Shown here: in pieces, positions 1 to 36,720 of the stretch
Layout: each line of letters begins with the position of its first letter
Numbering within the stretch: the first letter of the stretch is position 1
NCBI RefSeq assembly: GCF_964204645.1
Contig: NC_134027.1
Span: 12,928,485-12,992,484 of the forward strand
Direction of reading: 5' to 3'
DNA from: Tubulanus polymorphus
Lineage: Eukaryota > Animalia > Nemertea
Length of the DNA: 64,000 nucleotides
Program-made: the position numbers and the translations under genes
The notes under the pieces: generated by a model
The model's database searches: none
Told to the model about the DNA's origin: nothing
Seen by the model: the letters and a program-made list of their open reading frames with translations, nothing else

Positions 1-385
1 GTAAGTACTTGGAAAAGTGGGCTTTCATACCAGAGGTCGTGCGGTCGAGACACCACTCATCACCACAAGTAATAATTCAATTGAGTATGAGACACCACTC
101 ATCACAGCTAGGCTCTAGTGAGAACGGACGATTGCTCTGTGATACACATATACAGTGAGTGCGCGTAACAACATCTGCGCGTGGATAGATCGATACAGTG
201 AGTATCTACTGAGAACGGTTATTAACGCGTGTGCTATTACTGTAGTAGTACAGTGATTGCGTGTCAACTGTACCCGGATAAATAGATGCTGTGAGGCTTG
301 GGTGAGAACGGTTAATAGCGTGTTTGTTATATACAAGGGGAAGTAATCCCCACTCATCACCACAAGTAATTTTTTTTCCTTATAA

Positions 386-712
386 ATGGGAGATAGAAAA
401 GCATTCTTAGCAACAATAAATAACAGAATAAAACCAGCAAAAAAACAATTTGAAATAAAAAAGTTAGTTGATGTTACAAAAGAAATTGAACATAAAATAT
501 TGAAATTAGAAAAGATAAAAACTAAATATGGAGAGAAAGTATCAGCTAATTTAAGCTACTGCAATGGTAGTACATCGCGAGAATTTAAAGTATTTTTACC
601 TGATAAATGGGTTTCATTGAGTACAGAGGAATTAAAAGATTTAGAAGGATTTAAAATAATCTATCATGGAAAAAATGAAGATGGCCATCATGATTTAGAA
701 ATTGTTGATTAA
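386..712 (+). CDS. Small conserved protein, possibly OB-fold ssDNA-binding
   Basis: Homologous to 43412-43753 (TKYG...FLPD.W/F...Y.GKNE.GHHD). The SSB role is an inference from size and the beta-strand-like pattern. Confidence 0.5.
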   Translation: MGDRKAFLATINNRIKPAKKQFEIKKLVDVTKEIEHKILKLEKIKTKYGEKVSANLSYCNGSTSREFKVFLPDKWVSLSTEELKDLEGFKIIYHGKNEDGHHDLEIVD

Positions 713-902
713 ATTTAAAAAAATAAATTAATAAAAATAATGAATATTAAGAATCCGAAACAACTTATCTGGACAAATTAATTGCTCCGCATAGATGGTG
801 CCATAAACAGCACCCACACAGTGATAGACAAAAGTAGTGAGATATTCAATTAATATTCAATTAATTAAAAAAAATTATTTTTTTTGCTTTTTTTCTAAAA
901 TA

Positions 903-1272
903 TTAATCCATTTTTTTTATTATAAATTTTGGAATTTCAGAAGTATTTTCATTTTTAATAGCAGTTGTTTCAGAATTATTAATATCATGAATTTTATTTG
1001 ATTTCTTATACCAATTACACCCAATCGAAATGAATACAATTACAAATCCAACTGTAAAATATAGACATTTATCAAATATTCTATCATTAGAAGGAGTAGA
1101 AATAACAATATTTTCACTATTTTTATTAACATTTTTATTACTTATTTTTTTCTTTTACAGCTTTTTTATATTCTTGTGATTTAATTCCTAATTGCCGAGA
1201 CCATTCAATTTGTTTCTGTGATCTCGGTTTTTTCTTCACAGTTAATTCCTTCACTTCTTCCACCTCGCTCAT
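903..1272 (-). pseudogene. Frameshifted single-TM protein
   Basis: Near-identical to intact ORF 58443-58796 and homologous to 33067-33462; frame broken in a T-run near 1150. Confidence 0.7.
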
Positions 1273-1811
1273 TTATTATAGAAATATTTTTACTTTCAAT
1301 ATTTGAAAATGTTATAACCCCAGTTGATAATAATGTCATAAATCCACCTAATTGAAATGATAAATATCCAATCCATTTATTTAATTCAGTCATAACTAAA
1401 TAATCATTTTTTAAATCGGAATATAATCTATTTTCATCTTCAATTGGTAGTATATAATTACATAATTTACTATAACCTTTTACTACATTTTCTGATATCG
1501 CGTCATTAATTCTAGCTGTTCTTGCGGATTCATAAATCTTAAATAATCTAATAATTTCATCTGATTTCATTGTATCTAATTCATTATAAGTTAAATTTTT
1601 ACCGACAAAATTTTTACATTTTCCAGATGCTATTAATATTTCTAATTGATGTTTACAAATAAAGATAATATTCATAATTATTATTTGTTGTAACATTATT
1701 TAAAGCACCATCATCTGGAATTAATTTGTTTTCTGTTATTCCTAAATCATCTAAAGTTTTTTCAATTGGAACATCACCATTTTTAGATTTTATTTTCTTT
1801 TCACCTACCAT
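1205..1811 (-). pseudogene. Frameshifted conserved ~196-aa protein with hydrophobic C-terminal segment
   Basis: Near-identical to 58744-59334 and homologous to 32469-33074; TAAATG start at 1811. Confidence 0.75.
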
Positions 1812-1842
1812 TTATATAACAAAAAAATTAATTGTGTTGTTG

Positions 1843-2115
1843 CAACTAGAATTCTACTAGAATGTAACTAGAATTTAACTAGATTAACAAGCTAGTTGAA
1901 ATATTGTTATTTCTGTTTATTTCTTGTTAAATCTAGTTGATTTTTGTTCCAACTACCAATAACTAGAATTCAACTAGAATGTAACTAGAATTAAACTAGA
2001 TTAACAAGCTAGTTAAAATATTGTTAAATCTAGTTGATTTTTGTTACAACTACCAATAACTAGAATTCAACTAGAATGTAACTAGAATTCAACTAGATTA
2101 ACAAGCTAGTTGAAT
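1843..2115. repeat. Tandem AACTAGAAT-based repeat block (3 higher-order units)
   Basis: Unit AACTAGAATTCAACTAGAATGTAACTAGAATTxAACTAGATTAACAAGCTAGTT occurs three times; also present in element C at 59366-59637. Confidence 0.85.
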
Positions 2116-2724
2116 TTAAATAAATTCATATTTAAATGGGTGTTGTAATCTAAATAGTAATTTTGATCTTTTAATATTTTTCAACTTATCCATATATTCA
2201 TTATGTAAATCATGTGGAATTATATCATTTTCCTCAAGTGCATTTTTCATCGATTTTCTATCTTTATTGTAGAATAAAACTAGAAATCTAATGTTTTCTC
2301 TAAAGTCTTTAACAATTGAATTATATTTTTGATTTAAAACCCAAGTTGTTATCCCAAAATGTCTGCCAGAAAAAGCTAAATAGCATAACTCACTTTCTCT
2401 CACTTTTGAATCATGTAAATTTGCGCAATCATCTATGATAAATAATGTATTTGATCCTTTATAAATATCAATTGCTATTTTTATACAATTATCTAAATTT
2501 TCTTTTACTGTTTTAGGATCTAATATAATAAATTTATTATTTCTAGTAATATTTCTATCATAAGTTTGATTAAATTCATATGTTGGACAAAATAATACTA
2601 TATTATCAAAATAGTTTTTATAAACAGTTTCTAATAAATTTAATATAAAATAAGTTTTTCCACAATTTGTTACACCAGAAATTAACATATTATGAGGCTC
2701 AAATATAAATAATTCCTTATTCAT
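2116..2724 (-). CDS. A32/FtsK-HerA-like genome packaging ATPase
   Basis: Walker A GVTNCGKT, Walker B FIIDD and the A32-type GRH motif (SGRHFGIT...Q). Confidence 0.9.
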   Translation of the reverse strand: MNKELFIFEPHNMLISGVTNCGKTYFILNLLETVYKNYFDNIVLFCPTYEFNQTYDRNITRNNKFIILDPKTVKENLDNCIKIAIDIYKGSNTLFIIDDCANLHDSKVRESELCYLAFSGRHFGITTWVLNQKYNSIVKDFRENIRFLVLFYNKDRKSMKNALEENDIIPHDLHNEYMDKLKNIKRSKLLFRLQHPFKYEFI

Positions 2725-3849
2725 TTATATATTTTTAATTTTACTTGATAATATCCATTCATTGAATTTATCTGGCCATCCAACCCATTTTACTAAAGAA
2801 TATTTTTTTCTTTTAATAGTTTTTGTTTTTAATACTTTTTCAATTTTATATTCTTGTTCTAGATTTTCAATAGTTAAACTCAATTCTTCTTCATAAAAAT
2901 ACCCATCAACTTCTTCACCATCTAAATCTTCTAATTTATAGACATATGGTTTTGTTGTTATTACCTTTTTTTTTATATATATTTCCCTAGTAAAATTTCG
3001 ATCGTATCCCTTGTCAAATATCTTTTTATACTTAGAAATTCTAACATTTTGACCAACTTTAAATTTAGGTTCACCAAAATCATCTACAAGAAATGATCCA
3101 TATAAATAATTCCAAACAATTTCAGCATTTTCAGGTTTTCTAGCATCAATAGGTTTCATTCCAATAGAAGAATGATAAGAATTATTATATTCTTCTATCA
3201 ATTTTGGTAAAACATCAATCCATTTAAAAGTATTATTTGCTGTAAAATATTTCCACATTCTTGTTCTTAATGTTCTATTAAATCGTTCAACAAATGCTGC
3301 TCCTCTATCCGATTTTGTTGAAAAATATTTAATATTATGATTATCTAAGAGTTCATGAACAAGTGAATTATCAAATTCTTTTCCATCATCAAATTGTATT
3401 TTTTCTGGTTTTAGTTTATCATCCGAAAGAAATTTTCTTAAAACATTTGATGTTTGTACAGCATCTTTTCTATAAAGTGGGAAGCTCCATACATAACGAC
3501 TAAAAATATCAATTATATTCAATAACCACCAATAATCATCATTATCTTTCTTAACATTTTTCATATCAATTAAATCTCCTTGCCACTGTTGATCTACATA
3601 ACTTACCATAGTTTTACGAGTTTTATATTTTCTAACAATTTTTTTATGTGTTGTGTATGTTGGTTGTTCTAACATAAATTCATTTATATCTTTATATTTA
3701 ACTAAATTTTGTGGGATTATCTTATCTAATTTATCTTGTTTTACTTGACGCCATATATTTTTGGCAGAAGAATAAGCAACCGAACTCTCAGGGTTGTAAT
3801 ATAAATTTCTTAAATATTGTTCTTTAGTATTAGGAGTTTTTTTTACCAC
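2725..3849 (-). CDS. Retroviral-type (rve) integrase with C-terminal chromodomain
   Basis: WQGDLID, IDIFSRY, QFDDGKEF and VERFNRTL (DDE triad); chromodomain Y.IEKVL...LVKWVGWP..FNEWI. The true start codon is unclear. Confidence 0.92.
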   Translation of the reverse strand: MVKKTPNTKEQYLRNLYYNPESSVAYSSAKNIWRQVKQDKLDKIIPQNLVKYKDINEFMLEQPTYTTHKKIVRKYKTRKTMVSYVDQQWQGDLIDMKNVKKDNDDYWWLLNIIDIFSRYVWSFPLYRKDAVQTSNVLRKFLSDDKLKPEKIQFDDGKEFDNSLVHELLDNHNIKYFSTKSDRGAAFVERFNRTLRTRMWKYFTANNTFKWIDVLPKLIEEYNNSYHSSIGMKPIDARKPENAEIVWNYLYGSFLVDDFGEPKFKVGQNVRISKYKKIFDKGYDRNFTREIYIKKKVITTKPYVYKLEDLDGEEVDGYFYEEELSLTIENLEQEYKIEKVLKTKTIKRKKYSLVKWVGWPDKFNEWILSSKIKNI

Positions 3850-3883
3850 CGATTTATATATCCTTAATTTTAACTTTATATTT

Positions 3884-5062
3884 CTAATATTGAATACTAT
3901 CTAATTGTGAATTTACAATATTTAATTGCGCGTCAGATATAATATAAATGTGCATTTTAAAATTTAAGCTTCCTTTTTTCTTTTTCATGAATAATTGTAT
4001 TCCATCTTTAGTGTGCAGTAGTTTTTTCCCAGAACCATGTAATGAATTATCCTCTGTTGTTCTAAAATCTAATCATAATGCGTATTTATTGCCGGTATAA
4101 TAATCAATTTGATTAATATTACAATTTTCAAATGATTTTACTTTTTCATTCATAAAATGTTTTCTAATTTCTGGCCACTGATCTATCATTCTCATTCCTT
4201 GACAAAATATTTTATTTGGTATTCCTTCGATAGTTATTTCTACTTTTGTTATTTCAGGATTATATTAATTATCTACCTTTATTGCGCCATTAGTATATGT
4301 TGCAATGGTAAAAAATATTAATATAATATCATTTAATAGATATTCTTGGGAAGTTAATATTCTCATTAATTATTTCATCATTTGCATTAATAATTACAGT
4401 TTTAAATTTATCAATATAATCATATAATAATGAAAATCCTTGATTGTATTGTGTTTGAATTGTGCTAGCAATATTTTCATTAGTTACTGTGTCATATTCT
4501 AAACATATATTTGATAATTTATAACCCATATCTTTAACAACGCTAGACAATACAATTTCATTTACAGGAGCAAATGTTATCTCAAATATAATATCTTCTT
4601 GAATTGCGTATTTATATAAAGGTGCATTATTATTTATCAATTCAAAGTCTAATGGAATTTTATATTTGCTTCCATAAATCTTTTTAATCAAATTATCTGT
4701 GGCACGAGTTACTATTGCGTCATTAGCTCCTGATCTTAATTTATTATGGTTTTCCGATTGAATACCCTGAAATATCATATTATTTCTATTTTCAAAATAA
4801 TAGAATTGATTATAATCAAATATCTTCCAACATTATCAACAACATAATTATTATCATGACCAATTACTTTTATATCAGCTGATAAATAAATACTATTTGG
4901 AACATAAAAAGTATTTCGTGTTAATCTAGGAATTCTAACATATAAAGTTTCATCGGGATTAATATTTGAAGGATTATGAGTAATTATATGATGTGATCAT
5001 TCTGCTTTAATAGCATTAGATATTCTAGAAATCTTAGAAGGACTTATATAACTCCCACTCAT
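3884..5062 (-). pseudogene. Degraded major capsid protein gene
   Basis: Collinear with intact ORF 36721-37968, with an internal deletion near 4800 plus frameshifts and stops. Confidence 0.8.
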
Positions 5063-5096
5063 TTATTTAACAAAAAAATTAATTATTTATTTTTTA

Positions 5097-6525
5097 TTAT
5101 TTTTTTTCTTGATATCTTTTTGATATCATATTCACTAACCCAAAAATAATAGCACTTACAACTGTAATTAAAAATAAAATAATATGTTCAGCAGCAAAGT
5201 TAAGAATATTCTCAGCAAATTTCAATATAAAACCAACAATTGATGCAATAATTCCTGGTAAAGCTGCAGCAGATTTTTTAGATAGTTCCCATAAATATTT
5301 TGCTAATTTCTTTAAACCATCTTTAACTTTATCTTGTATAGAATTATTACCTGGGGGTTTATCTGGTTTATTGGGAGTAGGAGTAGATTTCAAAGCATTT
5401 GATATTGCTAAACCTATTGTTGTAAATAACATAGTTACAGCTGTTAGAATTGAAAGAATTGTTATTCCTTCTAATCTAAATAATAATTTTATTCTATCTT
5501 TTAATGATATTTCAGAATTTGGTTTAATCAACAAATCTTTAAAAATAACTTTTAATCTATTAATATTATAATCATATGATTTTAATAATAATTTAATTTC
5601 TTCTTTCTGTACTTCTAAATTATCTTTTAAATTATTAATTTCTTCTTCTAATCGTAATTCTTTTTGCCTATATTCTATTTCATCAATTACTTGATGATCT
5701 AAATCAGACTTTAATTGTTCTATTTCTTTATTTTTATCAGTTAATTCTTTTTCTAAAAATCTAATTTTAAAATCTCTTATACTTTTATCATGCGCAAATT
5801 TATCAGCTTTATTTCTTATACTAATAATTTCTCTAATTGCTTTATCAGAAAATATATTTAAATCTTCTAGTTGTTGATCTGTTGCATCAATTAATCCATT
5901 CGGTAAAAGTTTTTCAATTGGAACTTTATTTGATTTAAGTTTACTAGTTTTGGAAGTTATATTCTGTTTCTGATTTCTTTTTGATTATTTCAAATAATTC
6001 ATTAATTCTTTGTTTAAATACGTCTATATTATCATCTCTTTCTTTTTGCGTAACATCAGTTATTTCATTACTATTACTTATTATTTTAATTTTATCTGGT
6101 TCTAATTTTTTTAAAGTTGATTCTGCTAATATTTTATTTTTATAATTTTTATAAGTGATATCAATATAATAATTACCTTTCAAACGATAATAACATTTAC
6201 CATTATCTAAAAATTTTAATTTATTTGCTAAAGGTCCAACGTCTTCATCATTTATGTTAAGTTTAGATTTTTCAATTAAATCTTCTAATTTAGGTATTTT
6301 GTTTAAATTATCTAAATCTTGTTTTACTAAACCTGGGTCTAAATTGTCAGGATTTAATTATGATTCTGCATTTTTAATATAATCAGGCATATTTAAATTA
6401 TTATTATATTCTGGCTCATTACCATCATTAAAACTTGTTTCACTAAAATCAGGTTGTTGTTCATCAGTTATACCAGGTTCATCAAAAGGATCCATTCCAA
6501 TATCTTCGCCACCTTCTACATCCAT
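5097..6525 (-). pseudogene. Fragmented coiled-coil protein with three C-terminal hydrophobic segments
   Basis: N- and C-termini match 38013-39725 (MDVEGGEDI...; LEGITILSILTAVTMLF...). Confidence 0.75.
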
Positions 6526-10189: not shown

Positions 10190-10246
10190 TATTTATAACA
10201 TAAAAAAATTACACTCATCACCACAAGTAATTTTTTTCCCTAATAA

Positions 10247-11280
10247 ATGGATGAGAAGATACCATGTGAAATTTGTGGTGAACTTCTAGGAAAAAGTAAT
10301 ATGGCTCGACATATGAAAAAACATGATGAAAATTATAAACCCCCTAAACTAAACTGCCCAAAATGTAATAAATCATTCTCAAGAAATTATGTTAAAAAAC
10401 ATTCAGAGAAGTGTAAAATTAATGGCGCAACGGCTAATGTTGATTGTAACGAAAGTAATAGTAATTCTGTTGAAGTTGAACCTGAAGTTATTTGGAAAAG
10501 ACCTTTCTTATTCTATGATAAGGATAATATAAAAGATCATTTCTGTGAGCCTTGTCAAATGAAATATAACCCAGAAGATTGGGAGAATCATCAATTTCGT
10601 AAAGCACATATAGATAAAATTTCTAATAAATTTGAAACTGAATTCAATGAAAGAAAAAATAATTTATTAGAAAAAATAAAATATGAGAAAACGTTACCAG
10701 ATAATAAAGAAACAGTTGAAAAGTTAGAAAAACAATATAATGAATTAACAAGAAAAACATATTATTGTAAATATTGTAAATTGATTATTACAACAAGTAA
10801 TTCAAATCTACATAATAGAACAATAAAACATAAAGAAAACGTAAGAAAATACCAGGAGCTTAATGAAGATCTATTACCAATAAATTATAAACAAAAATGC
10901 CCACAATGTAATTACGCGACCTTAAGACAAGAAGGTACTGTGTTATTTTGTAATGAATGTGGATGGCAAAAGAATTTATGGAGTGAAGAAAAAACTAGAA
11001 ATTTTCTCATAAATTAAATTATCTAGATGAAATTTTTAAAATATTTTCTATAGAAGATCATACACCAGAATATATGCAATGGCTTGAAAAAATGAAAATA
11101 ATAGAAAATAAAAATGGTGAAATAACTAAAAAATATATTATGAAAACAATTATTCCGTCAACATTTAACACAAAACAAAAGAAAATGTATTTATATTTAT
11201 TATTTAACGATTATTATGAAAAACCTAAATTAACAGAAGAAGATATGGAAAATATAAAAAAATATTCAAACAAATATTAA
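10247..11280 (+). CDS. Multi zinc-finger protein; probably one gene with 11074-11280, split by a 5-nt duplication
   Basis: Several CxxC...HxxxH fingers. Removing one AAATT from ATAAATTAAATTATC near 11010 puts the two ORFs in frame. Confidence 0.65.
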
Positions 11281-11561
11281 TGTATCATTTGGAAAATAGA
11301 ATAACAGATTCAATTAATTATGAATTCTTTTTAAATAAGATTGTAAATTATTTAAACATAGATATTATAATTCCATTTGATGAATTCACAAACAAAAAGA
11401 AACAAAGAGAGCGAGATGAAATGTGGAACAAGATAGAACTTTATTTAAATAAGAAAAATGAAATGGAAGAAGAAGCTAAACAAATTATACAAGAACAATT
11501 AAATGAAAATGAAGAAGCCAATAGTGATTTCGATTATGATGATATTGATTTTATGTTTTAA
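11280..11561 (+). CDS. Small acidic hypothetical protein
   Basis: Start overlaps the upstream stop (TAATG); converges on the PolB stop. Confidence 0.5.
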   Translation: MYHLENRITDSINYEFFLNKIVNYLNIDIIIPFDEFTNKKKQRERDEMWNKIELYLNKKNEMEEEAKQIIQEQLNENEEANSDFDYDDIDFMF

Positions 11562-12013
11562 TGTCCATAAGGTAATGTTTTTATACCATCATCTAAAATA
11601 TGCCTTTTATCGTCAAATGGATTTAAACTAGTTTTTTCAACTTCATTAATGTACATCTCATGATCTTCTGATCTTAAACAATTCATTTTGTGTTTCATTA
11701 CAATTGATTTATATAAACACTTTATATAATCTTGAAATTCTATATGTTTATCAACCACGTGTTTTGTTATTCCTTTTGACTTTTTAGCTTCATGATCTTT
11801 TGTTCTATAGCTATACATTTTACTTCTTATCCCAACAAATTCAATCATTTCATCACCCCCTAGTTCATCTTTAAATTTACCAGGAATCTTTTTATTATCA
11901 TTGCTAAATAGTTCATGATCTTTGGGATAATTGCTAAAATCGAAATGATGTTTTAATGTTTTTAAGTCTTTTGTTATGTCATTTGTCTTGATTTTTAGTA
12001 TGTAACTGTCAGT

Positions 12014-13080
12014 ATTGACTGCTATTAATGGAAATCCATAGTTAAATGTACCATCTTCAGTTGATAAATCATAAACATAATCTGATGGGTTATATATTTC
12101 AAATAAATCCTTAACTTCTTCTGTTAACTCATTTTCTACATGGCTTAAATTAAAGCAATTTGGTTTAGATTTAATCAATCCAATATTCATATTAAAACCC
12201 AATGAATTGCATAATATATTCAATCCTGATATAGCAACTTTTCCTTTTTGAGCTAAAGATATCGTTTTGCGGTTTTTGAAACTTTTTGAACCATCTGCTG
12301 CGTAGAATCCAATGAAGAACCATTTTCTTAAATTATTTTTTTTGCATTTAATACATAATCTGGTACTATCTTTTCTTTTGTTGAAGTATTACTTTTCACT
12401 ATTGCATGAATATAGAATTCATCATTATATTTTATAGCAAAATCTTTAGGATTATTTACAAGTATTCTATAAACTGCTGATGATTTCATATGATCCATGA
12501 TTCTAAATGTTTTATGTGAATAAACTTCTTCACAGAATTTCTTAATTCTTTCTAATAATTTTAAGTCTTGATTGCATAAATACCAACAATATTTATTACC
12601 CCAAACATAATTATACACACCTGCTGAACCATCTCCCATGAAAAATCCTTTGATAAAATATTCTTTTTCTTCTAATGTTTCGGGTTCTATGTTATAAATA
12701 TTATCAATTATTTCATCAAATGACATATGATTCATTCTTTGGAAAAATCTTTTATGTAACAATTCATCTCCAATTTTTATATCAGTTGGTTTTATTTCAT
12801 CGCCATTTCGTTTAATAAAACTATGATCTTCTGTAACATCTACAAACCCTAATTTAGTTCTAACTCTATAGATTTTCTTATTTGTTTTATGCCTAATAAT
12901 ATTCTTTAATTTTTTCCATCCATTTCTTGTCCAAACATCCATTAATCCATTTATTTGTATTAATTCTTTTTCACCATATGAAATATAACATTCATTTTGT
13001 TTTGGAATTATTTCTGAAATTCTTCTTATCAATATTTTATCATTACATTTTAATAATATTGGGGTGTCAGCTGTTACAGA
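12014..13080 (-). mobile_element. Intein with LAGLIDADG homing endonuclease in PolB motif C
   Basis: EILYFD|SVTADTPILL...VTEDHS (block B)...FIKGFFMGDGS...FFIGFYAADGS...FPLIAVN|TDSYILK. The element B PolB reads EILYFDTDSYILK with no insert. One frameshift in an A-run near 12340. Confidence 0.93.
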
Positions 13081-16000
13081 ATCAAAATATAATATTTCAA
13101 TATGCTTTTCTCCAAAAAGTGGTTGTAAAACATTATAATAAAAATCATACATTAATAATTTTGATACTTCTAAAACAGTTGAACCAATGAATATAGGATT
13201 ATTAAATTTCATTGACGTTCTTTTTAATTTAACTGCTGTTAAATAATCTTCAAATCTTTTATTTCCTAAATGTCTAGGACTTGATTGTAAATGTCTTAAT
13301 CTTTCAGAATTATTTACTAATTCAATATCATTTCTATTTCTAATATTTTCGCATGTTTTTCCATAAAAACTATTGTTCATTAATTTGAAGAAATCTTTTT
13401 CAAAATCTGTTTTTGATATGGTTCTCTGTTGAGTATTAAAATCTATATATTTTTCTAACCACTTCGATTGATTAAATTCAATATATCTATGTACTTTCTT
13501 TAATTTCATTCCTTGTTTTAGATAAAATTTTAACATTCTATAATGAACGATATAATTGTATTTATTATTTTGAGTAAGTATTAATTTTTCTGTAAAAAAC
13601 ATGATCTTTCGGTTTTATTTTCTTCTGGTATTCACTTAAATAACTATCATCTACAGTTAAATGTTCTGGGCAATAAGGTAAGTTTCTTGTTTTAAACTTT
13701 ATATTTTCAGGATATTCTAAATCAACTACAAAGAAATAACCAATTGGTGCTTCATCTTTTAAACTCGCAATTGCGCTTTTTCATCATTTTCAACTTCTGT
13801 TAATATAAAATTTTTATATGGTTGAGGTTGCATCATTGCCCAACCATATAAATTATTGGCGTCAATATATAATAATTTATATTCATCATTTGCTTTAAAA
13901 TACCTATCTCCCATTACACCACTAATTCCACCTCTAATTGATTTTTCAAATAATAAAACCATATCTGGTTCTTTTAATAAATCTAATTCTACATTTGTAT
14001 ATTTTAAACCACATTGCCAGGTTAAACCAGGACTAGAGTAGCAATAACAAGGATCAACATTAAAATGATTCAAATTAACTTCTCTAAATTTTCAACTAAT
14101 CACCTAATCAACTAATTCACCATGATTTTTCATCTTAAAATGGTTCCAAATATTTAATGTTCTATTGAACACTTCGTCTTTCACATACTCCTCTTTTAAT
14201 TGATCATAAAATTGATCTTTTAGTAATTCTGTTACATTAAAATCATTGTGTGTTTTATAAAATGAATAAGGAATTGCGCCTTTATATCTCAATAATTTAA
14301 AATCTTGGTCATTTGGATAATAATATCGAGTTATTATAAAATCATTATCAACTAAACTTTTTGATAAATTATCTAATGAACTTGCTAGAAATCTATAAGA
14401 ATCTAAAAATCTAATGCAACCAAATTGAAATGAAATATAATTTTCAGATGTTTTAGCTAATAGTTTAAAATCATATTTTCTTACATTTACACCATTCATA
14501 GCATTATATTCTTCTATTTCTTGATTAATTGTGCCCAATTTCTTTGATAATTGTTTTATAAATAGATGGGTATCATAGCCTGATAAATTATGAAATAATA
14601 TTGGTACGAAATTAACTTTCTTTGCTTGTAAATTGCAATCTTCATGAGCAGCTCCACGATATTTTGAATTTAAATGATCATGATCTCTTAACTTTTTTAT
14701 CAAATGAATAAAAACGTTGAATAACAACAATGAGTTGCATAATTAAAATCAATTTCATCTTCTATTGTCATAACTATTCTTTTATTTTTGTTTAATAATT
14801 TTGCAAAATCACTTTCTAATTCAATCATTTTATCACAAAAATCATTAAATACATCTTCACCTCTAAGAGAAATATATTGACTTTCATATAATTTGGGATA
14901 ATTTGATTTGACGTAAATTCCATAAGCAGCAGCTCTTTGATGAACTTTTTTAATTGTATTTATAATTGGTGGGTCTTGTATTGTGTCTTCATTAAATCCA
15001 TTTCCTTTATCCATTGATTTTAATAATTGCTTTTTGTTATATATTTCTTTTCTATCTTGATCAGTTAATTCTTTATTCAACGATTCAAAATCCCCATAAA
15101 TTACAAAGGGAACAATATTCTTAAATTTATGATTAGTAAATTTCAATTTATAATCTTTTTCTGTTGGCATTATTAATTTGCAAAAATCTTTATTATCACA
15201 TAATTCTTTATGTTTTAATAATGTATTCTCTGTCATAAATTTAGATAAACATTTTCTACATAGATAAATCTTATGATGATGATCACTTTCTGTTCTAAAG
15301 AATAAATCAATTTGTTTTAACCACATATAATGTTCATTTTCATCTTTTTTGTAATATAACAAATCTATAGCATTTTCATCATCATAATATTCTGTTAAAT
15401 ATAAAGCTTCCAATGTATAATCTTTAATATTTTCACCTTTTGTCTTTGGTAATTGCATTAATTCAAATACATTTATTTTTAAATTATTAACTTTTTCTAT
15501 TTTAGGAATCATTTTTATAGTTACTGGATATTGATCAATTTTATATAATGTTTCATATTTCCGGTAATTTGTTATTCTAAAACTATGCGTCATATCTTCT
15601 GTTGGGTGTAAACAACTAATAATTGACCATAGAAAACATTTATTATCTTCATTTTGAACATTTATTACTGCTTTTGTTGTAAATGGTAATTTAATATAAG
15701 ATGATGCTTTAATATCCTTTTCTGTTGTAAAGTTTGAATCATTTTTAAACATTTTATTACTTTTTGATGTTTTATTCCTTTTTGTATTGTAAACATTTAA
15801 ATCTAAATATATAATTTCATTCAATGTTAAGCCAGAACCCTCAAAATATCTTCAATATGACGTTTAAATTCATTAAATATTTTTTCTAAATTCTCTTTTA
15901 TTTGCGTTTTTGAAATAATTTCTTCAGAGAGTGTTTGAATATTATAATCCATTTTTTCTTCTGACTTTATAAAACTTACTTTCCCAGAGATACTAATTTT

Positions 16001-16837
16001 TGGATATTCAACATCTGTTATCAAATGTAGTATTTTTTCTATTATTTCATTAAATTTACTATAATCTTCTATTGTTGTACCTTTAAAAAATCTAAATATA
16101 ATAGCTGCAGGACCAATTTTACTATGTAATGTTTCTAAAATTTCAATTGTATCTTTTATTTCTAGTGAATCAATATAATTTCTAACATTTTCCATGTAAG
16201 GTTTATTTGAAATGGATTTAGTTTTTGAATTTGGTTTTTTTACTTTTTGAGGTTTATTGTTAAAATAATCTTTTCCTAAAACATTATTACTCAAATTTTG
16301 ATGGTGTTTTGTGATTCGAGATGTCTATTATAATTCCTTTTTGTTATAAATTCATTACAAACTTCACATTTTATTTCATCCACATTCATATTTTCTAATC
16401 GTTCTTTTCTTTCATTGGAATTTTCTGAAGTTTCAAAATCTATAACATTTTTTATATGATTTGACGTTTTTTCATGTCGTGATTTTTGGGATTTATCGAT
16501 GTATTTTTTACAATATTGGCAATAATATTGATTTTTATTAAAGGATTTGTGACACCTAAATTATTTCTGCGGTTTTAGTTAGTATGAATAAAATTATTAC
16601 CGACAATATTTACGAAAATTAGAAGCAATGAACGTTTATATGGTTTTGAGAGCGATTTTGATGGAAAATCTCGCACAACAGTTGAAGCGCGCATCTTCGG
16701 GCATTTCCGTCAAACATCGGTGATGATGACGTATAACCGAGAAGACGAACGCGGAAGTGGCTCATTGTACAACGAAGGATTGACTAGCGCGGACGATATA
16801 TTATTCGATTATTCTGTTTTTTCTAAGTTTTTCGATC

Positions 16838-19800
16838 ATGCCTCGTCGTTGTGTTTACTACAATTGTAGTTCAAGTAATCGCTCTTTGTTCTGGTGGCCA
16901 CGGGATACGGTTATTGCGCGTAAATGGACCGCATTTGTGAGCAGAAAGAGAGCACAATGGAAGCCCTCATCCACGAGTGTATTGTGTGGGAGGCACTTCA
17001 CCAACGATTCATTTACGAACTATTCAATGTTTACTTCAGGATTCGCGACTAAGTAAGTCTTTTAACATTCAATATTTAAAATAAAAGCAGTATTGCTATC
17101 TCATTCTTTTCATCAGGTCAGGTTAAAAAGTGTTTCAGTACACGGAAACTGGGTCAGGTCCTTTCTTTGTTCATTGCTTCGTTTAGACATGTTTTCTGAC
17201 TAACTGGTCTAGTAACTGCCTTCCCGACTCATTAATTGATGTATCATGGCTGGTTTTACAAGCTGCTCATATTGATTGCCTGAGGACTAAATGGACCTCC
17301 TGACTCGATGTTAGGTCTACACTTAAAACCTTGAAGCCTAATCTAGTATGCAAGTATAACTATCATATTTTGAATTCCATTTAGATTACATTTGAAGCCA
17401 GATGCCATCCCTACCATTCACATAAATGACGACGATGATAACAGTCAATCAGATACCACTAAAAGACCAACGTACGCAAAACGAAAAAGAAAAGAGTTGG
17501 TGGAAACTTTAGTAGCTGATACAGTATCTAACGAAGAGTTACAGCCTTCTACATCAACCGCTGAAACGTCATACAGTCCGACAGCTGATACATCAACCAG
17601 TCCAACATCATCACCAGATAGGCCTCCCAAGTTTGTCGAAAAATCGTCACAGAAAGATATTGAAGCAGAAACCAAAGGTAAATTTCACTATATCATAAAA
17701 AATTCATGCTACAATAATTTTCTGGCATTCCATTTATATTTTCAACCTGATTTTTAGAAATTATGTTGTGAAAAAGTCTGTAGGTTATCTGAGAATAATT
17801 GGCGTATTGTTAATCGATGTTTTATTTGTGTCATTAAAGGTAATCAAACGCTTGCATGGAGACCGAAATGTAATCGACGACACTATCCGAGTCAGGGTAA
17901 ATTAACAAGGAAGAAAACAACTGGCACACAAATGACCCCTAAAAAGTTTAAGCCTTCGTATGATAGCACCGATACCGACGTATCCAGCGATGACGAATAC
18001 TTCGACGATGATCCCGATTATGATCCAGGTGAAGATCCTAATGGATCATCTTCAACTGAATTTGACGATGAATGTAGCTCTTCAGTATTCGATGAAATGA
18101 GGTAGGATTTTAATTTTCCTACAGTGTTTTTTTACAACACTTATATCATAACTATGATAAGTATAATTTTTTTCAGGGATGAAGCAGAAGTGCCATTACA
18201 AAAGAGGTCAAAATTCATTGTTGACCAATCTGCATTGCTGGAACTGTTTGTGTTATGCGTTTTGTGTCGTGGGAAAAACACTGTCCTTCGCAGAGTAATT
18301 TCTACCCAGCTCACCGTGAAGACGAAGTGTCAGCAGTGTCACCATGAAACCAAATGGCAAAGTGAACCATGTGTAAAGCGTATCCCAATAACCGGTCTGT
18401 TATTAAGTTCACTGATAGTGCTGACTGGAAATCTCACCTCAAAAGTTATACGACTGCTCAGGTAAGAAAAAGAAAATCAAGCATTCAGTAAAAGGTTTAC
18501 ATTTTGATCGCTTTATAATATGGATAATTATCATTATTGGATTATCTGCTTATAGGTTGGCAGGTATCCAGTGCATGAGTACAAGAACTGCGTTTCGGCA
18601 CCAAGCACAGTTTGTACATAAGGCAGTGTACTCTGTTTGGAAATCAAGTCGTCAGTCTTTACTCGACAGCCTCAAAGGATCAGCACTTCTCATTGGGGGG
18701 GATGCTAGGTGTGACAGCCCAGGACACTCTGCAAAATATTTTACATATTCGATAATGGACCTGAAAAGTAATAAGATAATTTCATCAGAACTGATACAGG
18801 TGTGGTATATCATTTGAAATTTTAGTCCTTTATAATAATATTAGTTCTTACTTATAAGAATATAATCTTATTATTCATTTAGTCAAATGAGGTAACGTCA
18901 TCAAACGCTATGGAAATAGAAGGTCTGAAACGTGCTGCAGAACGATTGAAGACATACGAAATCACAGCTTTCATTAGCGATATGCACCCTTCAGTGCATA
19001 AGTGGGCTCGAGACACCTGGAAAGTATCTCATTACTTTGATACCTGGCATTGTGTGAAGGGTAAGTCAATTATCAAATCAGAATCCTGTTATAACATCCC
19101 GCTCTACTTTGAATCAATATCAATTTCACTTGGTGTTAACTCATTCTGGTATGAGAGCAACAGACATTTATTTTCTGTGTAATATTATGTTTTGCAGCAG
19201 TGATTAAGAAACTCGAGAAACTCAGTAAAAAGAAAGGTCTCGAAGATATCCAAGCTTGGATACAAAGTATCCGAGTTCACCTGTATTGGTGCGCTATGTC
19301 GTCGAAACCTGGGGACCATGAGGATATAAAACGAAAGTGGGAAACCTGTTTGGAACATATTTCAAACAATCATGAAAACTGTATGCATGGAGATTATGAA
19401 AAGAAAAGAAAATGGATATTACCAGGTATCTATGATAACCAAAAGTCTTCATAAGCTATTGACTTGATACATGGGTGATTAGTTGCATTTTACATGTACA
19501 TATTATATTTCGTCATTTTTCTAGATACATATGCCGCAAGTGAGCTCGAGAAAGTAATGAAAAACACCAGAACAGTGAATCAAATCGGAAATATGTCATC
19601 GTATGGTCAGACGAGCTCTGTAGAAGCATTTCATAGTGTGTTAAACCACTTTGCACCTAAGATGATTCACTTTTCATATATTGGAATGCTTAGCAGGTTA
19701 GTAAAAAGTAGCTGTGAATAGCTTCAACTTGTTAAAACACTCAACATTCGTCTAATAAATTAGTGTCTTTACAAATTGGATCTGTGATATTTCTTTAATT

Positions 19801-20508
19801 TCCATAAACCTAAAGTGCGTGGGACATGAACCTGAGACTTATAAATCCTTCGTGGCTTTGTTTTGGTTCCAACTCGCTAGTGTTGCCATCTTTTGGTTTT
19901 TATTTTAACTTACTACATCTGTATGATTTCAAACCAGGCGATATGGACTAATAAAATATTCAGATAATATTGTCACATAAAATATGAAAAATTATTTCAT
20001 TTTTAGGATGTGCACAGCAATCTTGCATTACAACGAAAATAGCGGCAGACTTCAAGCTAAAACTAAAGATGGGAATGAGCGTTTCACTGTATTTTATCCA
20101 AAACACAAAGATGGTCACACGCTTCGTAGAATATTGACCAAAGCAACATACGTTAGGTCACAATTGGATGCATATTAGAACCCTTTGATCATCGATAGTT
20201 TATAAACATATCATTGAAGCCTGTCTATAATTGAAAGCGGATCCTCATTTGCTTCATCAAATATCTTTTTAGGTTATGTCGATGAATGCGTTGTTGCAGC
20301 AATAAAGATTGCAAACAAGGAAGTCGAAGTGAGTGATTACTGTACTCCTCCACCTCATTTGAGTTCTCAAAAAGTGAAAGTAACCAAGGAAGAAGCCATA
20401 AACCAGCATTTGTCTCGCTTCAAGAAAGTTACAGAAATCGTGCAATCGAAGCCTCAATCCTCAGGACCAACACAGCAACAGAAGAGAAAAAGATCAAATA
20501 AACTGTAA
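16838..20508 (+). CDS. Multi-exon THAP-domain DDE transposase (Kolobok)
   Basis: THAP domain (CVYYNC...W...LCGRHF...DAIPTI). Catalytic-type motifs GDARCDSPGHSAKY, ISDMHPSV, DTWH and TSSVEAFHS. GT-AG introns visible; exon limits approximate. Confidence 0.85.
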
Positions 20509-20603
20509 TCAAGATAACGATTAATGAAAAACTAATTCCTGAAATAATTTGTCCGTTTTATTTAATAAAGATACTTATATTATTATCTACACACATAATT
20601 CAC

Positions 20604-21708
20604 TTAGTCGTCCAGTTTTGGCAGCCTGAATCCTTTATAAATGGCGAATTCTTCATCACCGTCTTTCGGAAAGTGTGCCCGGATGCACGAAACAACACAA
20701 GATGGCAAAATAACCCTTATCTTAGGTCCACAGAATCCCCAGCACCAACGAACAAACTGGCGATACGCAATATGTCTGTATTTATCATTGGTCTGGCCTT
20801 CAAATGCTCTTCTGCCGTATTGCTGGTTTCTATAACCACTCCAGGCTGTTTGAAGAACCCAGACATGTAGGCACACCCCCTTAAATCCATCGGTGTCAGT
20901 GATGCAGTTGTATTCCCTGGAATCGTATCCTTCGAGTTCTCGAATTTTCCCGGCAACAACATCTATCTCACTGCAACACACACATTCCGGTTCTGTTGTT
21001 AGAATTTGACAATGGGTGCATGTACACCTGTGAAAATAAATTAAAACATTCCATCAAGACATGAAAGGTGGATCTAATTATTTCTCGTCTGGGTCTAACT
21101 GCAGTTTGGGTCACCTTTCCACTGTGTGACGCTAGTTGTTAACGTAAGGTTAGGTACATAACCATTAGGGACACCTAAACTGCAGTCACTCCCTGGTCTG
21201 GAATGAGATATCGGGTAGGCTTTCTAGCAGTCTCTGATTGCCGTTTTAGATGGCTTAGTTAGTTTATACTGAATTCCTTAGATACCGGCTGTACAAAAAA
21301 AAAACTACAAAAGACTATAGAAAGCCTTCTGTTTTACTATTGGTTGACGGATGAATTTAATAACCGAATCCACCATTATCCTTAGATTGTGTCGCCCCAT
21401 ACTTTGTTAACAACAATAGAAATCCCTTACCATTCATTGAACCGATGAACATCTAATCTAGAGATTCTATCCGGTCTATTGTCCGGTCTAGCGCCGTCTT
21501 CGTCATCGTCTGATGCATCAGGCTCGTACAAATACGGCGGCTCTGCAGCATTAAAAACGTCCATATCGGGCCCCATTTCGCCCACCTCAATTTCAGATGA
21601 TAGTGCACTTTCATCTGAGAATTCTCTTTCGCTTATATTTTCGCTCACTTCGCTAGATGAGGATGAATTGTCGGAGGAATAATCACTGCATTCTCTATTG
21701 TCGGCCAT
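20604..21708 (-). CDS. KolX-like Cys-rich protein (resembles P2X7 intracellular domain), 2 exons
   Basis: Acidic exon 21708-~21431 spliced to WCTCTHC...ECVCC...YRHIAYRQFVRW...RVILPSCVV..IRAHFP. Confidence 0.8.
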
Positions 21709-22065
21709 TTTGTTTCTGTTTGTTGTTCTCGGTTATACGTCATTCGATGACGTCATTGCCAACGCACGTGGCAATGTAGTCAAATGTAAACAAATCATCG
21801 GAATTTCTATTAAAAGTCGTATTTAGACCAGTTAGCTAAACCGTAGAAATGTTTTATTGATATCAGTCCAATCTACGATGATTCATCTACCAAATTAATC
21901 ATTAAGAATGCAAAACCTGACTTATGTGTCACAAATCCTTTAACATTATTGTTTTCTGGCTGGTGTTCATTCTCCCCCATTTATTAGGAAAAAAAATTAC
22001 TTGTGGTGATGAGTGGTGTCTCGACCGCACGACCTCTGGTATGAAAGCCCACTTTTCCAATTACT

Positions 22066-22319
22066 GTAGTATTAGACCAGAGAGACGACCAGAGAACAAG
22101 AACTCAGCACGACGAACAGTGTAGTCTTACAAAAATGCCTCCTGATTTATTCATACACAGATATTTATATGCAGCAAATATGACGGTCACAGACCGTGAA
22201 TAACAAATAGTATTGAATTCGGAAATATACAGTTTACAGTTTACTGGACAGTTCAGTCACATTCGAAACAACAACAGAGTTGACAGAGTTGAGTCACTCC
22301 ATAGGACCGAGTCCCGACA
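22066..22319 (-). repeat. Probable 3' LTR of the BEL element
   Basis: Minus strand has purine tract CCGGGAGAA followed by TGTCGGG at 22319, AATAAA near 22146-22151, and ends ...AATACTAC(A). The partner LTR is outside the window. Confidence 0.65.
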
Positions 22320-23748
22320 TTCTCCCGGCGCGAAGTTTCTGCAAGGCTGCAACGGCAGCAGCACGTTTCGGGCGGATGATCCTTTTTTTTTACTCGCTTT
22401 TTCGGGTTGTGGCTCCTGTTTCGCGAATTCTTGATGATTTATTTCGAGCGGGTACAACTTATTAATGGGTCTACTCGTTCGACCCTTAGCGGTTCGCACG
22501 ACCGCCGATCGCACACAGTTATCATTTCCACGATTCAACTTTTCGATGATACCCAAACGCCATGTAAGACGAGGGTTATCCGCGTGGATTTGAACGATAT
22601 CACCTATTTTCACTATTTCCTGATTATTTCCGGACTGATTATGTCGCTCCCTGAGTGCGGTGAGGTACTCGTTTTTCCATCTACCCCAGAAATGCTGCAC
22701 GAGTACGGCGCGATGTTCTTGCCGACGATTCAACTCGCTATGACCATAATCTGGATCAGCCAACGTATCAGCATCAGTAATAGGTTGCGGAAGAGCCGAT
22801 ATTCTGCGCCCATAGATTAAGTGAGAAGGAGTTAGTGGTTCTAGTTCTAAAACACGGCTATCAACATATGTTAAAGGTCTATCATTAATTATACATTCAC
22901 ATTCAATAACAACAGTATTCAATTCATCGTAGTTAAGTTTTGCACGACCGAGGACTCTTTTCAGACAGCTTTTTACCATCCCAACTAACCTCTCCCAAAG
23001 TCCTCTGAACCACGGAGCTCTTTTTGGAATGAAACGCCATTCGACCCCATTCTGGGCCATGAATTGAAAGATTTTCAGTGATTTGAATAAATTCGAGAGT
23101 TCCTCGAATGCGCATGTAACAGTTGAAGCATTATCAGAATACACAATACGTGGAAACGATCGACGAGCACAAAACCTACGAAATGCTAAAAGAAAGGCAT
23201 CACAGGTAAGGTCAGTTACAAGTTCTAAATGTAACGCTCTAGTAATAGCGCATGTTATAAGACAAATATAAACCTTTGCATCAGATGATTCGGTTCTTAC
23301 GATTAAAGCGCCTGTATAATCAATACCAACTACTGAAAAGGGTGGCGCTTCTTGAACTCGTACGGCGGGTAATGGAGCCGGATCGGGAAGCACGAATGGT
23401 TTACCAGTGCCAGCCTTAATACAAGGCACACACTTGTGTATCAAAGAGGTAATACGACGACGAATTTGTGGTACCCAATATTTCTGTCTAACAAACGCTA
23501 TTGTTGCATTAACACCTTCATGCATTACCTTAATACAATGGACGTAACGAAGATACAAAAACGTGAATCGATGGGTTCTCGGCAACAGGATCGGGTACTT
23601 CGTTTTCACTGGAAGCCTAGCGTTCTGTATTCTCCCCCCGCAACGAAGGACGCCATCAGACAAAACAAGTTTCAACTGTCTTACCAAAACTTGTCGTGGC
23701 TTCGAATTGGAACGTAAGGAATGAATAATATCACCAAATCCTTCACTC
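22257..23748 (-). CDS. BEL pol segment: HHCC zinc-binding domain and integrase core
   Basis: H...HEG...C..C, GIDYTG, SDNA and WERLVG motifs; BEL-type C-terminus (FWGRWKNEYL, RPINKLYPLE). Confidence 0.9.
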
Positions 23749-24119
23749 TATGGAACGCGATTCATGCAATAAACATGACCATTGTTACGACGTAGGATAA
23801 TTGCTGCGCCGTAGTATATTTGCGTCGGTGTATATTTTCTCCGACGTAGGATAATTGCTGCACCGTAGTATATTTGCGACGTGTCTACTTTTCATCGCAT
23901 CTATTTCGCTGCGACGTGGGTAGTTTGTAACGACGTAGCTTATTTACGTGAAGGTTCCATAGTTCACCGTATGGTGGCGCCACGGTATTATATACTCAAT
24001 AAAGTTAGAATTTAATTGAATCATATCGCTCTTTTCGACGCAACATAGTACGCCACAATCCGAAACTTTCGCGCTTTCCTTCGAATCTAATCTAATCTAA
24101 TCACGCCGGTATACAAATC

Positions 24120-27100
24120 ATGGATGCAATTCTTTCCGAGTTGAAACTTGATGAAGTAATAGAAACATTCCGGAGGGAAAATGTAAGGATAACTATTCAA
24201 TATAAGGACAATAAGCCCATCCATCCAGATATATACATAGGCCTACCACTTACCACCAGTGTCGAGTGCCGCCGCCGGCGGACGATACGTTGATGGATCT
24301 GGATGGATGGATCGTCGATATGGAGAAGATCCAGACCATATCGTCGCCCGGCACGTGCACCCACTCCCGGACGATCGTCTCCTGTTGATGGAAATGAATT
24401 GTGATATGTTAAGATCATTTTATTATTATAATGACTAATGACAGGCTAGGCAGCTTTACAAGCCTGAAGTAATGTCTTGTGACGTGTAATAAGGATGTAA
24501 ACTAAGTGCTCTTCTGGCTCTGGTATTTCTCAATAACCGGTAACAACATTTTTCCAGGCGCAGAGTCTAGGCCTACTCTCTCGAAGCGGTAACATAATTG
24601 GGCTCACAGCACAAGCGAGATAATGTGTTTTGCAGAATATTTTCATTATCTTATTCAGGTAACTCCAGCAGCTGTCGTAGCAATGCTCGACACTGACCTC
24701 ACCTCCATGGGAGTAACAAGAATGGGCGATCGAGCACTCCTGAAAGTGAAATGTCGGCACTTTATATCATCAACTAGTGTTAATCGTCCAAGTGAGTAAA
24801 TGGGAATTTACAATCATAAGTTGTAATAACGAGTACCAGTACTAAACCTATGCTTTAAATTTTTAGCTGTACCTATTCCGTCCTATGACATAGGCAAGGA
24901 GAGGAAAACTTTATTTACATCAAAAAAAGGATCCGAAAAACAAGTCGGCTATGATGAAATTAACTTTCTTTTGTCTAGGCAATCCTGACTGTGTAAGTTA
25001 TAGATTTTCATTCATATACCAGCAGTTCAGACATTGAAAAGTTAATAGGCCTATTGTAAAGCTGTTTTGATTAAAAAATACCAAAGTAACTGTACATTGT
25101 ATAACTCAAGTTAATAACTTACTTTTGCAGAAGTTATCTTCGAATTATCACTAATACGATCTGTTTCAATAATGGTTTTATTTCATTGCTTCCAGATGGT
25201 TATTCCGCATGACAGGGAAAGTAGAATTAGCCTGATACAGTCAGGATTGGGCGAGAAAACATTGGAAATAGAAAAAGATTCAACATTCATAGAACTTCGA
25301 GGTAAATTGTTCGAAGTGTTTCCACAGTTGTCCACCGGTGGTGGTTTCGAGTTTCTTGCTGCCAGGGCAAATAAAATGTTGGAGCTGCTTGACATTGAAA
25401 GCAGCTCCATCACACCGTATGCCTTGAAGAGCCTTGTGGCTCGAGGAAAAATCTATATTCGCCCCATACAAAGAGAGATATTGTCGCAAACTACTCCAAA
25501 GGTGAGTCAATGAACTATTTTCTGCTGTTCTTATAAATGATCTTAAGTATGAATAAAATTTGTTTCTGGTTGTAGGCGGAATCAGTGAAAGAAAAGTGCT
25601 TGAAATGCGATCAGGAATTTCCACTATCTTTGTTGAGGGAACACACTGAAAGCTGTGACGGGTATATATTTTTTCTTATTACAACGAACTTCACAGGACC
25701 AGAAAATCAGAACCCAGTTCCACAGTTGTGAGTTAAGATTTGACTCTGAGTTAAAACATTGAAAATGAACTAATTTTAACTCAGAGTTAACTCTAACTCA
25801 CTACTGTGGAACCGGGTCCTGTTGGTTAAAACCAGTATAAAATTAATTTGTCTTACTTGGGTCGCAATTCTATATACATGTATGTTATCCGTATCTGATG
25901 AATTGATTTATTGTTTGTTATGATGAGGATTCCACTCTACAGATGAAAGGAATTAAATTTTTAAATATTATTCTTAAATCGCTAGTTTGATCGATGATCT
26001 ACCGAAGATTTCAAATGCTGCTGCTGCTGCTGCTGCTGTTGCTGCTGTTAAGAGGAGCATTTCGTCTGTATGTATAGCTTGTAATATACATGTACATTGT
26101 AACAAGATGTTTCAGATTGCAGGCAATAACAGTTTATTATGTTTGTTGTAACTGCTGAATTAAAAAGTACACTCACTAAATATTTTATCAGTGATAAGTT
26201 TTCTATAATGGACCTAAGGATTATTATTATTATGGATTACAGACAAATGATGCAGAAAGAAATCCTAAACAAGTTCGGCCTAATTCAGCCTACAATTTCC
26301 ACAGGTACGTTTCTTCAGCAGCTATATTCCACATTCGCTGTATATGGTGATGTTGATGTATGTTTTACAATTCATCATCAGGTGTCAATACTACCTACCA
26401 TACATGTAAATGTAAGATATTCAATGCATTATTAGTTTCATAAAAAGCCGAGATGATTGTCTTAAATGGCTTGCTTCTTCCCAGCATCCTGGACACACCC
26501 TCTGATTCTTGTACTAAATTAGCTTATATAAAATGCATAATTGGTTTTATTTTAGGCACCAGGAGTTTATTGATCTTACTACCGATTTAGATATGATGTT
26601 TCCAGATGATGACAGTGATGCAGATTTGAATCAGGCAATTGCTAACAGCTTAGCCGAGGTGGTGGAACCACAATTGAAAGAGGAACGGTAAGCCACGGTC
26701 GTAAACTTTTCACTGTCAACGTGAATTGTATTAAACTCAGGAAATTGAAAAACTATATTTTCTTGCATTAACATTCATAGACAATTTCCTATCAGCTTTT
26801 CACGATGCCACATTCACACTTGTCATGGATAATCCAAATTTATTTTACAGTTACGGCATCATTATCTAAAAGAACAAAGGTAGTAGCATGGATATATTTT
26901 TGTTACCCAGTCTATATTCAGGTCTCTGCTTTTTATATGTCTATGTGTACTTTCTTAGGCTATCGGTGTGTAGATTTATTATATATGGTACATGTACATG
27001 CTTTCCTTCTCAATGGGGAACCCACAACACCAGCTATCTATGGAACGCGATTCACCCACCAGATGGCGACAGGTCTTCCGTTCTCAAAATCAGTTCATTG

Positions 27101-29581: not shown

Positions 29582-29849
29582 AGTAATAGGGATAATAGGC
29601 TTTCAAGCCAAAGGTCGAACGGTCGAGCTTGTAAAAAATGAAAAAACATAAAAATAATTACAATTTCTACTTGAATTACTCGCGAAACTCATAAAAATGA
29701 AAAATAAATTCTCACACGCTCGAATTTATTTTTCATTTTATGAGTTTCACTCCTAATTCAAGTAGAAATTGTAATTATTTTTATGTTTTTTCATTTTTAC
29801 TCACCCGCCCGTTCAACCTTTAGCTTGAAAGCCTATTATCCCTATTACT
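29582..29849. repeat. Terminal imperfect palindrome (fold-back), left end of element B
   Basis: AGTAATAGGGATAATAGGCTTTCAAGC...loop TCACACGCTC...GCTTGAAAGCCTATTATCCCTATTACT. Confidence 0.92.
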
Positions 29850-31143: not shown

Positions 31144-31441
31144 ATTATGATTAACGCATGCGCATTAAGCAAAACCGGCCATAAATAGCCGCATGTGACA
31201 CATGTAACGCATGTGACGAGGGACATGAATGCGTTTGAATTTTCTATGTTCAGTTGTTTCTATTTTACAGAATGAATATATAATTATGATTAACGCATAC
31301 GCATTAAGCAAAACCGGCCATAAATGGCCGCATGTGACACATGTAACGCATGTGTTGTTTCTATTTTACAGAATTTATAGAATGAATTTATAATTATGAT
31401 TAACGCATGCGCATTAAGCAAAACCGGCCACAAATGGCCGG
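31144..31441. repeat. Three ~50-72-bp direct repeats
   Basis: ATTATGATTAACGCATGCGCATTAAGCAAAACCGGCCA... at ~31144, ~31283 and ~31393. Confidence 0.85.
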
Positions 31442-31577
31442 CCGCTTGTATTATTTAGATATCAAGGAATCGAAACGACTTATCAAAAGCAACGAGGAAT
31501 GAAAAAGGATGACGTTGGTCGAAGAAATGGAAGAGGATTATAAATTAACCAATTTAGTAAAAAAATACGTATAATAA

Positions 31578-33462: not shown

Positions 33463-33468
33463 AATAAG

Positions 33469-35161: not shown

Positions 35162-35190
35162 AATCCTAATTTGGAATATTATAGAAACTA

Positions 35191-35521: not shown

Positions 35522-35554
35522 AGTTTTATAGATATATAAATAGTTTTATAATAA

Positions 35555-36688: not shown

Positions 36689-36720
36689 TTATTATATATA
36701 TTTTTATTAAAGTTAAAATT

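Follow-up and report, generated by a model that had tools for sequence, protein, structure and literature searches.

Polintons and other mobile elements in the window

The window, by which we mean the whole 64-kb stretch of DNA analysed here, contains three AT-rich Polintons (A, B and C), all on the minus strand. Polinton A (4–22066) carries an integrase gene (2725–3900), an A32-type ATPase gene (2116–2724) and a capsid-like gene (~3975–5100). Its terminal repeat pieces (4–73 and 21996–22065) match over 70 bp only, and its left end lies at the window edge. Polinton B (29582–48163) is bounded by 438-bp terminal inverted repeats (99%) and a 6-bp target duplication (TTTATC). Polinton C (57842–64000) is 97% identical to A over positions 350–4793 of A, its polymerase gene lying beyond the window. 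The rve and Pox_A32 profiles scored above cut-off in A and B; DNA_pol_B_2 matched A with an E value of 3e-5, just below its cut-off. A weak Capsid_N match (E 0.006) was confined to C, and no profile match to a protease was found in the Polintons of the window.

The right end of A encloses a 5.4-kb DNA transposon (16542–21939), which ends in 14-bp terminal inverted repeats, is bordered by TTAA on either side and contains intron-split genes with THAP (36.8 bits) and P2RX7_C domains. We take this transposon to be Kolobok-like; THAP-domain transposons are mainly found in animals. Bel/Pao domains (Peptidase_A17, 136 bits; DUF5641, 71 bits) were detected between the Polintons. As Bel/Pao retrotransposons have been described as a metazoan-infecting group (PMC8742986, PMC3118150), their domains on the same contig suggest that the host, and hence the chromosome carrying the intein described below, is likely animal. 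Polinton-like elements are reported to be abundant in protists (PMC10120064), which would suit a protist, fungus or symbiont as host and make our case one more intein in the endogenous virus of a microbial eukaryote. Such a host is very unlikely, given the Bel/Pao domains on the contig and the THAP-domain transposon nested inside A.

An intein in the polymerase gene of element A

The protein-primed DNA polymerase (pPolB) of A is encoded on the minus strand in two parts. The N-extein (13081–16324) is broken into several pieces, with frame changes at ~14.7, 13.8 and 13.6 kb and stops at ~14.1 kb, and the C-extein (11558–12013) begins with TDS. Between them, on the same strand, a 1,067-nt insert (12014–13080) splits the catalytic motif YFD|TDS, separating ...EILYFD from TDSYIL.... 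This is exactly the position given in the initial annotation. In the direction of the gene, the insert starts with SVTADTP at 13080, continues through TEDH, IKGFFMGDGS and FIGFYAADGS, and ends with PLIAVN at 12014; a Thr at +1 directly follows the terminal Asn. The coding sequence comprises a Hint splicing domain and a two-motif LAGLIDADG endonuclease, interrupted by a single frame break at ~12330–12390, between the two LAGLIDADG motifs. Accordingly, the intein was divided into an N-half (12345–13080), with Ser1 of block A, TEDH as block B, the first LAGLIDADG motif and the conserved Lys of KEKIVP, and a C-half (12014–12334), with the second LAGLIDADG motif, a block F with Asp and without His, and a Val-Asn block G. 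Both LAGLIDADG motifs keep their acidic residues. The Ser start, the TEDH block, the two LAGLIDADG motifs and the Thr at +1, all listed in the initial annotation, are thus present.

The two halves (P0001 and P0002) were kept apart as separate queries. The N-half passed TIGR01445 (intein_Nterm) with 32.9 bits against a cut-off of 24.5, and LAGLIDADG_3 (PF14528) was above its cut-off on five of the six intact relatives scanned. On the window halves themselves LAGLIDADG_3 stayed below its cut-off (16 and 20.3 vs 22.5), as did Intein_splicing (PF14890; 28.6 vs 35.8), which was passed by one of the six relatives (P0198). In the PDB, the N-half weakly matched the archaeal intein PI-PkoII (E 1e-4). 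We conclude that the insert is a genuine class 1 intein with a LAGLIDADG domain. A Hedgehog-type Hint domain is ruled out by the internal position, the LAGLIDADG domain and the Asn/Thr junction, and an assembly chimera by the occurrence of the intein in reads and in contigs of two further studies.

The copy in the window is dead: in addition to the intein break, the frame of the polymerase gene is disrupted at several further points. In 129 of about 150 reads over the intein break, the run length differs from that of the window, and the break therefore looks particular to the window copy or to its assembly. The GC content of the intein (25.6%) resembles that of its flanks (21–26%) and gives no signal of recent transfer. 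No second intein-like stretch was found in the 64-kb window.

Among the residues with described roles in protein splicing (PMC4031507, PMC7765530), the window intein has Ser1, the block B Thr and His of TEDH, the block F Asp (VYDL), the terminal Asn and Thr+1. It has neither the block F His nor the penultimate His. The Val in place of the latter had been pointed out before and is indeed there, but the loss of His that it implies is not unusual: of the 191 relatives extracted, 99 have Lys at the penultimate position, 74 have His, nine have Ser and nine have another residue, with Val in a single one. Because Lys is more frequent than His at this position, we regard the loss as a family trait, and the Val was dropped as a special feature. 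Both His residues assist splicing and are usual, but they are not universal and do not define a class 1 intein; the reference list of PMC4031507 cites a title on splicing without the penultimate His. The seven filled copies of one cluster of relatives (the P0198 cluster, see below) are full-length, otherwise intact polymerases of 1537–1539 aa. The position of the intein within the catalytic motif of such polymerases suggests that it splices. Both catalytic motifs of the LAGLIDADG domain are kept in the intact relatives, where the insert continues the reading frame of the polymerase (P0003 and P0198, for example).

Relatives of the intein and their phylogeny

Searches returned 249 longer proteins. 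Among the best nine, seven are inteins of Polinton-type pPolBs in the same position (46–62%), where Polinton-type is judged from polymerase similarity (41–62% to the window flanks; PF03175 and Endonuclease_7); mostly RNA-primed PolBs follow. Further searches added P0123–P0141, P0147, P0198, P0209 and P0210. The nearest relatives of the window intein, again from this position in other pPolBs of Polinton type, are 43–64% identical to it. Two clusters of relatives hold 121 and 136 members, the larger one on contigs of up to 1 Mb. A search of 50% representatives gave 1,850 matches, the best 150 of which were used for alignments only. In viral contigs, the family profile detected at least 80 loci, each of which reads YGD|TDS across the junction; 25 of the best 80, and 15 of the first 17, lie on named giant-virus MAG contigs. 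Scanning with the N-half as a single protein gave distant loci only, two in metagenome contigs (21%) and one in viral contigs (28%), and P0003 as query gave no locus in viral contigs.

A single branch unites eight intact pPolB inteins with the two halves from the window, with support of 100/100 in IQ-TREE (62 rows), 100/99 under a mixture model (23 rows) and 1.0 in FastTree (157 rows). The two IQ-TREE sets were hand-picked and contain no named reference virus; the FastTree set leaves out four doubtful extractions and inteins outside 305–450 aa. The branch has a long stem and is nested within giant-virus-type PolB inteins (the enclosing 36 rows are supported by 94/99), its sister being an open fork.

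The initial annotation had proposed that A acquired the intein from a large co-infecting DNA virus through homing. The deeper link to giant viruses stands, as seen in the nesting of the clade, and both the many giant-virus contigs among the best viral loci and the site shared with the Mimivirus and archaeal pol-c inteins agree with it. Direct capture, in contrast, is extremely unlikely. Seven of the best nine matches belong to a single, fully supported Polinton clade with a long stem, which, for the proximate source, is the outcome that the initial annotation had named as refuting a giant-virus origin. The window halves are 37–48% identical to three giant-virus-type PolB inteins, and the best giant-virus-type values on the halves (43–48%) are lower than those for the Polinton-type relative P0003 (63–64%). 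In addition, donor and recipient can hardly be aligned in their polymerase flanks, too little for direct homing; the same argument was made for Mimivirus in PMC549080.

The intein appears instead to be an old resident with a long history of co-descent with the pPolB, since the intein and the polymerase sequence around it have diverged to a similar degree. Between the window and P0003, the intein halves are 64 and 63% identical and the flanks 62 and 59%. The corresponding values for intein versus upstream/downstream flank are 66 vs 72/70% for P0198 and P0005, 77 vs 81/85% for P0209 and P0210, and 57 vs 53/50% for P0155 and P0209. A tree of the upstream flank shows the same subgroups as the intein tree, within Endonuclease-VII-type pPolBs. 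P0007 departs from this pattern: its intein is 42–49% identical to the clade, but its flanks barely align with the other pPolBs, and a VSR-like motif was seen by eye in its polymerase. This points to at least one jump of the intein between polymerase classes. In the free trees the nested position of P0007 is starred, but an AU test did not reject its placement outside the other Polinton inteins (p 0.24), so that the jump may have run in either direction. The residues before the site vary within the clade (YFD, YMD, YSD, YLD, SSD and YGD).

Empty sites and signs of homing

Element B had been described as an empty allele of A. Its YFD|TDS motif (44283–44342, minus strand; junction 44313|44312) is indeed uninterrupted. 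However, the polymerase genes of A and B are only 73–78% identical, and the first 12 bases after the junction include five differences, among them a switch between serine codon families. The site in B is therefore an orthologous site in a diverged subfamily and not an allele of A, and with its differing downstream half-site B was dropped as a cognate homing target. The polymerase of B has one frame break near 44.62 kb and also carries an Endonuclease VII insert.

Matching empty alleles of the A type do occur elsewhere in the same species. In raw reads with the same species label as the window (run X6, 12% of the run read), an exact junction of 12013 with 13081 was seen in 24 reads (17 starts), which represent precisely empty A-type alleles. 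In nine further reads the upstream side of A continues into a downstream half-site of B-like type, and 85 reads depart from the window sequence at 13081. A marine metagenome run (X5) yielded short pieces only and was set aside. Read depth was 88–257 across the intein, from which we judge filled copies to be numerous in the species, and 232–358 in flank bins away from the junctions. For B, no intein junction was seen in the 24 loose-end rows listed for its reads, with 231 further rows beyond these. From the best-supported 40 of 275 rows, a subset of the full sample, we obtained 21 differences within the intein; third codon positions account for 16 of them (p 7e-5), 14 leave the amino acid unchanged, and the third-position bias extends through the nuclease region.

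Filled and empty copies were also compared within the 136-member P0198 cluster, whose members may stem from several assemblies. Of the 15 members listed, 13 cover the site; seven are filled and six are empty. Their far N-exteins differ by ~1% in all rows but one (4–5%) and do not sort by filled and empty state (five label changes vs a shuffled mean of 4.6). Near the site, 10 residue differences are fixed between filled and empty copies, all between −7 and +44, and no fixed differences were found at −75 to −8 or at +45 to +120. Differences at −120 to −76 were disregarded, as they stem from an indel in a single row (P0432) in an ungapped comparison. A patch from −7 to +44 is the pattern expected if the intein came with a co-converted flank. 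The six empty copies carry three other versions of the motif, none of them the YMD of the filled copies; such variants would be consistent with copies evading the nuclease, although they could also be no more than older variation. Among the filled copies, the intein differs more than the far N-extein (2.1% vs 0.6%). In a second cluster (P0006), the filled P0155 and the empty P0158 are 100% identical over 180 and 160 flanking residues. The evidence for homing is thus indirect and consists of a co-conversion-like patch and of filled and empty copies that are intermixed.

Taken together, we consider it probable that the insert represents a disrupted member of an intein family resident in the YxD|TDS site of Polinton-type pPolBs, and that this family persists by homing between element copies. 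In intact copies, the intein would be translated in frame and splice out between Ser1 and Thr+1, with Asn cyclisation proceeding without either of the usual His residues, restoring the polymerase. The endonuclease would cut intein-free copies in the same nucleus, whether these are integrated or replicating. With a filled copy as the repair template, the empty copy would be converted together with part of its surroundings; a diverged site would protect a copy from cutting. Historically, the family may go back to a single ancient event in which the intein passed between an RNA-primed PolB of giant-virus type and the pPolB of a Polinton. Long co-descent with the Endonuclease-VII-containing pPolB class and at least one jump to a very different class, that of P0007, would have followed.

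The same patchwork could arise if the intein still spliced but no longer homed, being inherited with the polymerase and shuffled by ordinary recombination between Polinton families. Homing is not required to explain the matching divergence of intein and flanks, there are still empty copies whose flanks match (P0158 and the 24 reads), and the filled P0198 inteins vary more than their far N-exteins. Even so, we find such passive inheritance improbable. Catalytic residues are kept across lineages that are 43–50% alike, which the homing-cycle model (PMC1654191) would not lead one to expect of a non-homing nuclease; moreover, the haplotype patch is centred on the insertion site, and the third-position bias runs through the nuclease region.

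Persistence by homing, as favoured above, may extend to a natural homing-endonuclease drive in animal nuclei. In such a drive, the intein would convert the scattered copies of an endogenous virus one after another, and the virus family would respond by changing its polymerase active-site motif to forms that resist cleavage. We hold this tentatively, at slightly less than even confidence. The resistance part draws on the three site variants among six empty copies of an otherwise 99% identical family and on the B-like half-sites among empty reads. The persistence of empty copies that look susceptible (again P0158 and the 24 reads) would be equally compatible with a nuclease that is weak or dead.

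Relation to known inteins and polymerase inserts

The site is that of the Mimivirus and archaeal PolB inteins, termed pol-c (PMC549080), as the initial annotation had recognised: it reads YFD|TDS here and YGD|TDS in Mimivirus and in all 80 viral loci. The pol-c inteins of Mimivirus, other Nucleocytoviricota and archaea (PMC549080, PMC5784728) share with ours the YxD|TDS position, a length of ~350 aa, Ser1, TxxH, two LAGLIDADG motifs, the terminal Asn and Thr+1. They differ in residing in RNA-primed polymerases of large viruses and archaea, whereas the host here is the protein-primed polymerase of an integrated multicopy element in what is likely an animal nucleus. In addition, the Polinton inteins form a clade of their own, and the residues around their site vary.

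Eukaryotic inteins have been described from the nuclei of fungi and other microbes, from chloroplasts and from large viruses (PMC5784728). Those of fungi, algae and Anaeramoeba (PMC5784728, PMC10710043) and that of a Chloropicon Pol delta (P0071) are likewise nuclear and virus-linked, and the last one occupies the same site. They reside in single-copy host genes; the intein described here sits in a dispersed viral element, so that homing could run between copies within one genome. Iridovirus inteins (PMC549080, PMC5784728) occur in viruses of animals, namely insects, but these are large, non-integrating viruses, whereas our intein lies in chromosomal DNA. The intein of Chilo iridescent virus ends in Gln, unlike the Asn of the window intein.

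Nuclease domains inside Polinton polymerases have been reported as HNH (Endonuclease VII) and VSR inserts of pPolB2 (10.1101/2023.08.22.554363, PMC11071308), and it was suggested that such inserts result from intein invasions (PMC11071308). These inserts were reported with neither a Hint domain nor splice junctions; here, a complete intein occupies the polymerase active site, and the HNH insert is present as well. The main text of the nematode Polinton paper contains neither 'intein' nor 'LAGLIDADG', the main texts of the adintovirus and coral Polinton papers do not contain 'intein', and PMC10710043 does not contain 'polinton' or 'maverick'. Where they were accessible, PMC12220804 and PMC3671162 mention inteins only in general. 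We found no published report of a Polinton intein in the literature searched, although supplements or Repbase entries may hold a mention. The clade thus appears to be an undescribed, Polinton-resident one with signs, at the sequence level, of ongoing homing.

To our knowledge, inteins have been thought to be confined to microbes and viruses. Complete inteins in Polinton pPolBs would place protein splicing and a homing nuclease in DNA that is likely part of animal chromosomes, and the clade provides a sequence link between the replication genes of giant viruses and Polintons. Multicopy families could allow the homing cycle of invasion, co-conversion, resistance and decay to be read from a single genome. 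In practice, an unrecognised insert of 350 residues with converted flanks can distort Polinton polymerase trees and annotations.

Further observations

Several related inteins lie outside the Polinton clade. P0071, named as DNA polymerase delta of Chloropicon primus, groups with viral PolB inteins. Closely related inteins starting with SVTxDTP occur in type II topoisomerases (P0087, P0103, P0105, P0106, P0109, P0114 and P0205), where the D|TDG junction mimics the polymerase site. Five prokaryote-MAG contigs (L084–L088) carry PolB inteins that group with viral ones and may be mis-binned viral contigs. A haloarchaeal locus (L089) shows 29% identity; its intein was outside the trees.

Within the window, no tRNA genes were found. 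The Bel/Pao pieces are located at 22257–23747, 51809–52876 and 56112–57863, and a 297-bp segment (23749–24045) has a 99% inverted match at 51564–51860. Inside A, at 10212–11017, a 46-bp piece of its terminal repeat lies directly upstream of a plus-strand zinc-finger ORF that is absent from the matching place in B. Element B is a mosaic: its capsid-side genes are 87–91% identical, its polymerase 73–78% and its integrase/ATPase block (32469–35161), which is inverted relative to A and C, only ~75%. HECT-like ORFs and an rva_4 transposase flank B on both sides (25118–29300 and 49111–50156), and B was probably inserted into another transposon, presumably an IS3EU-like one.
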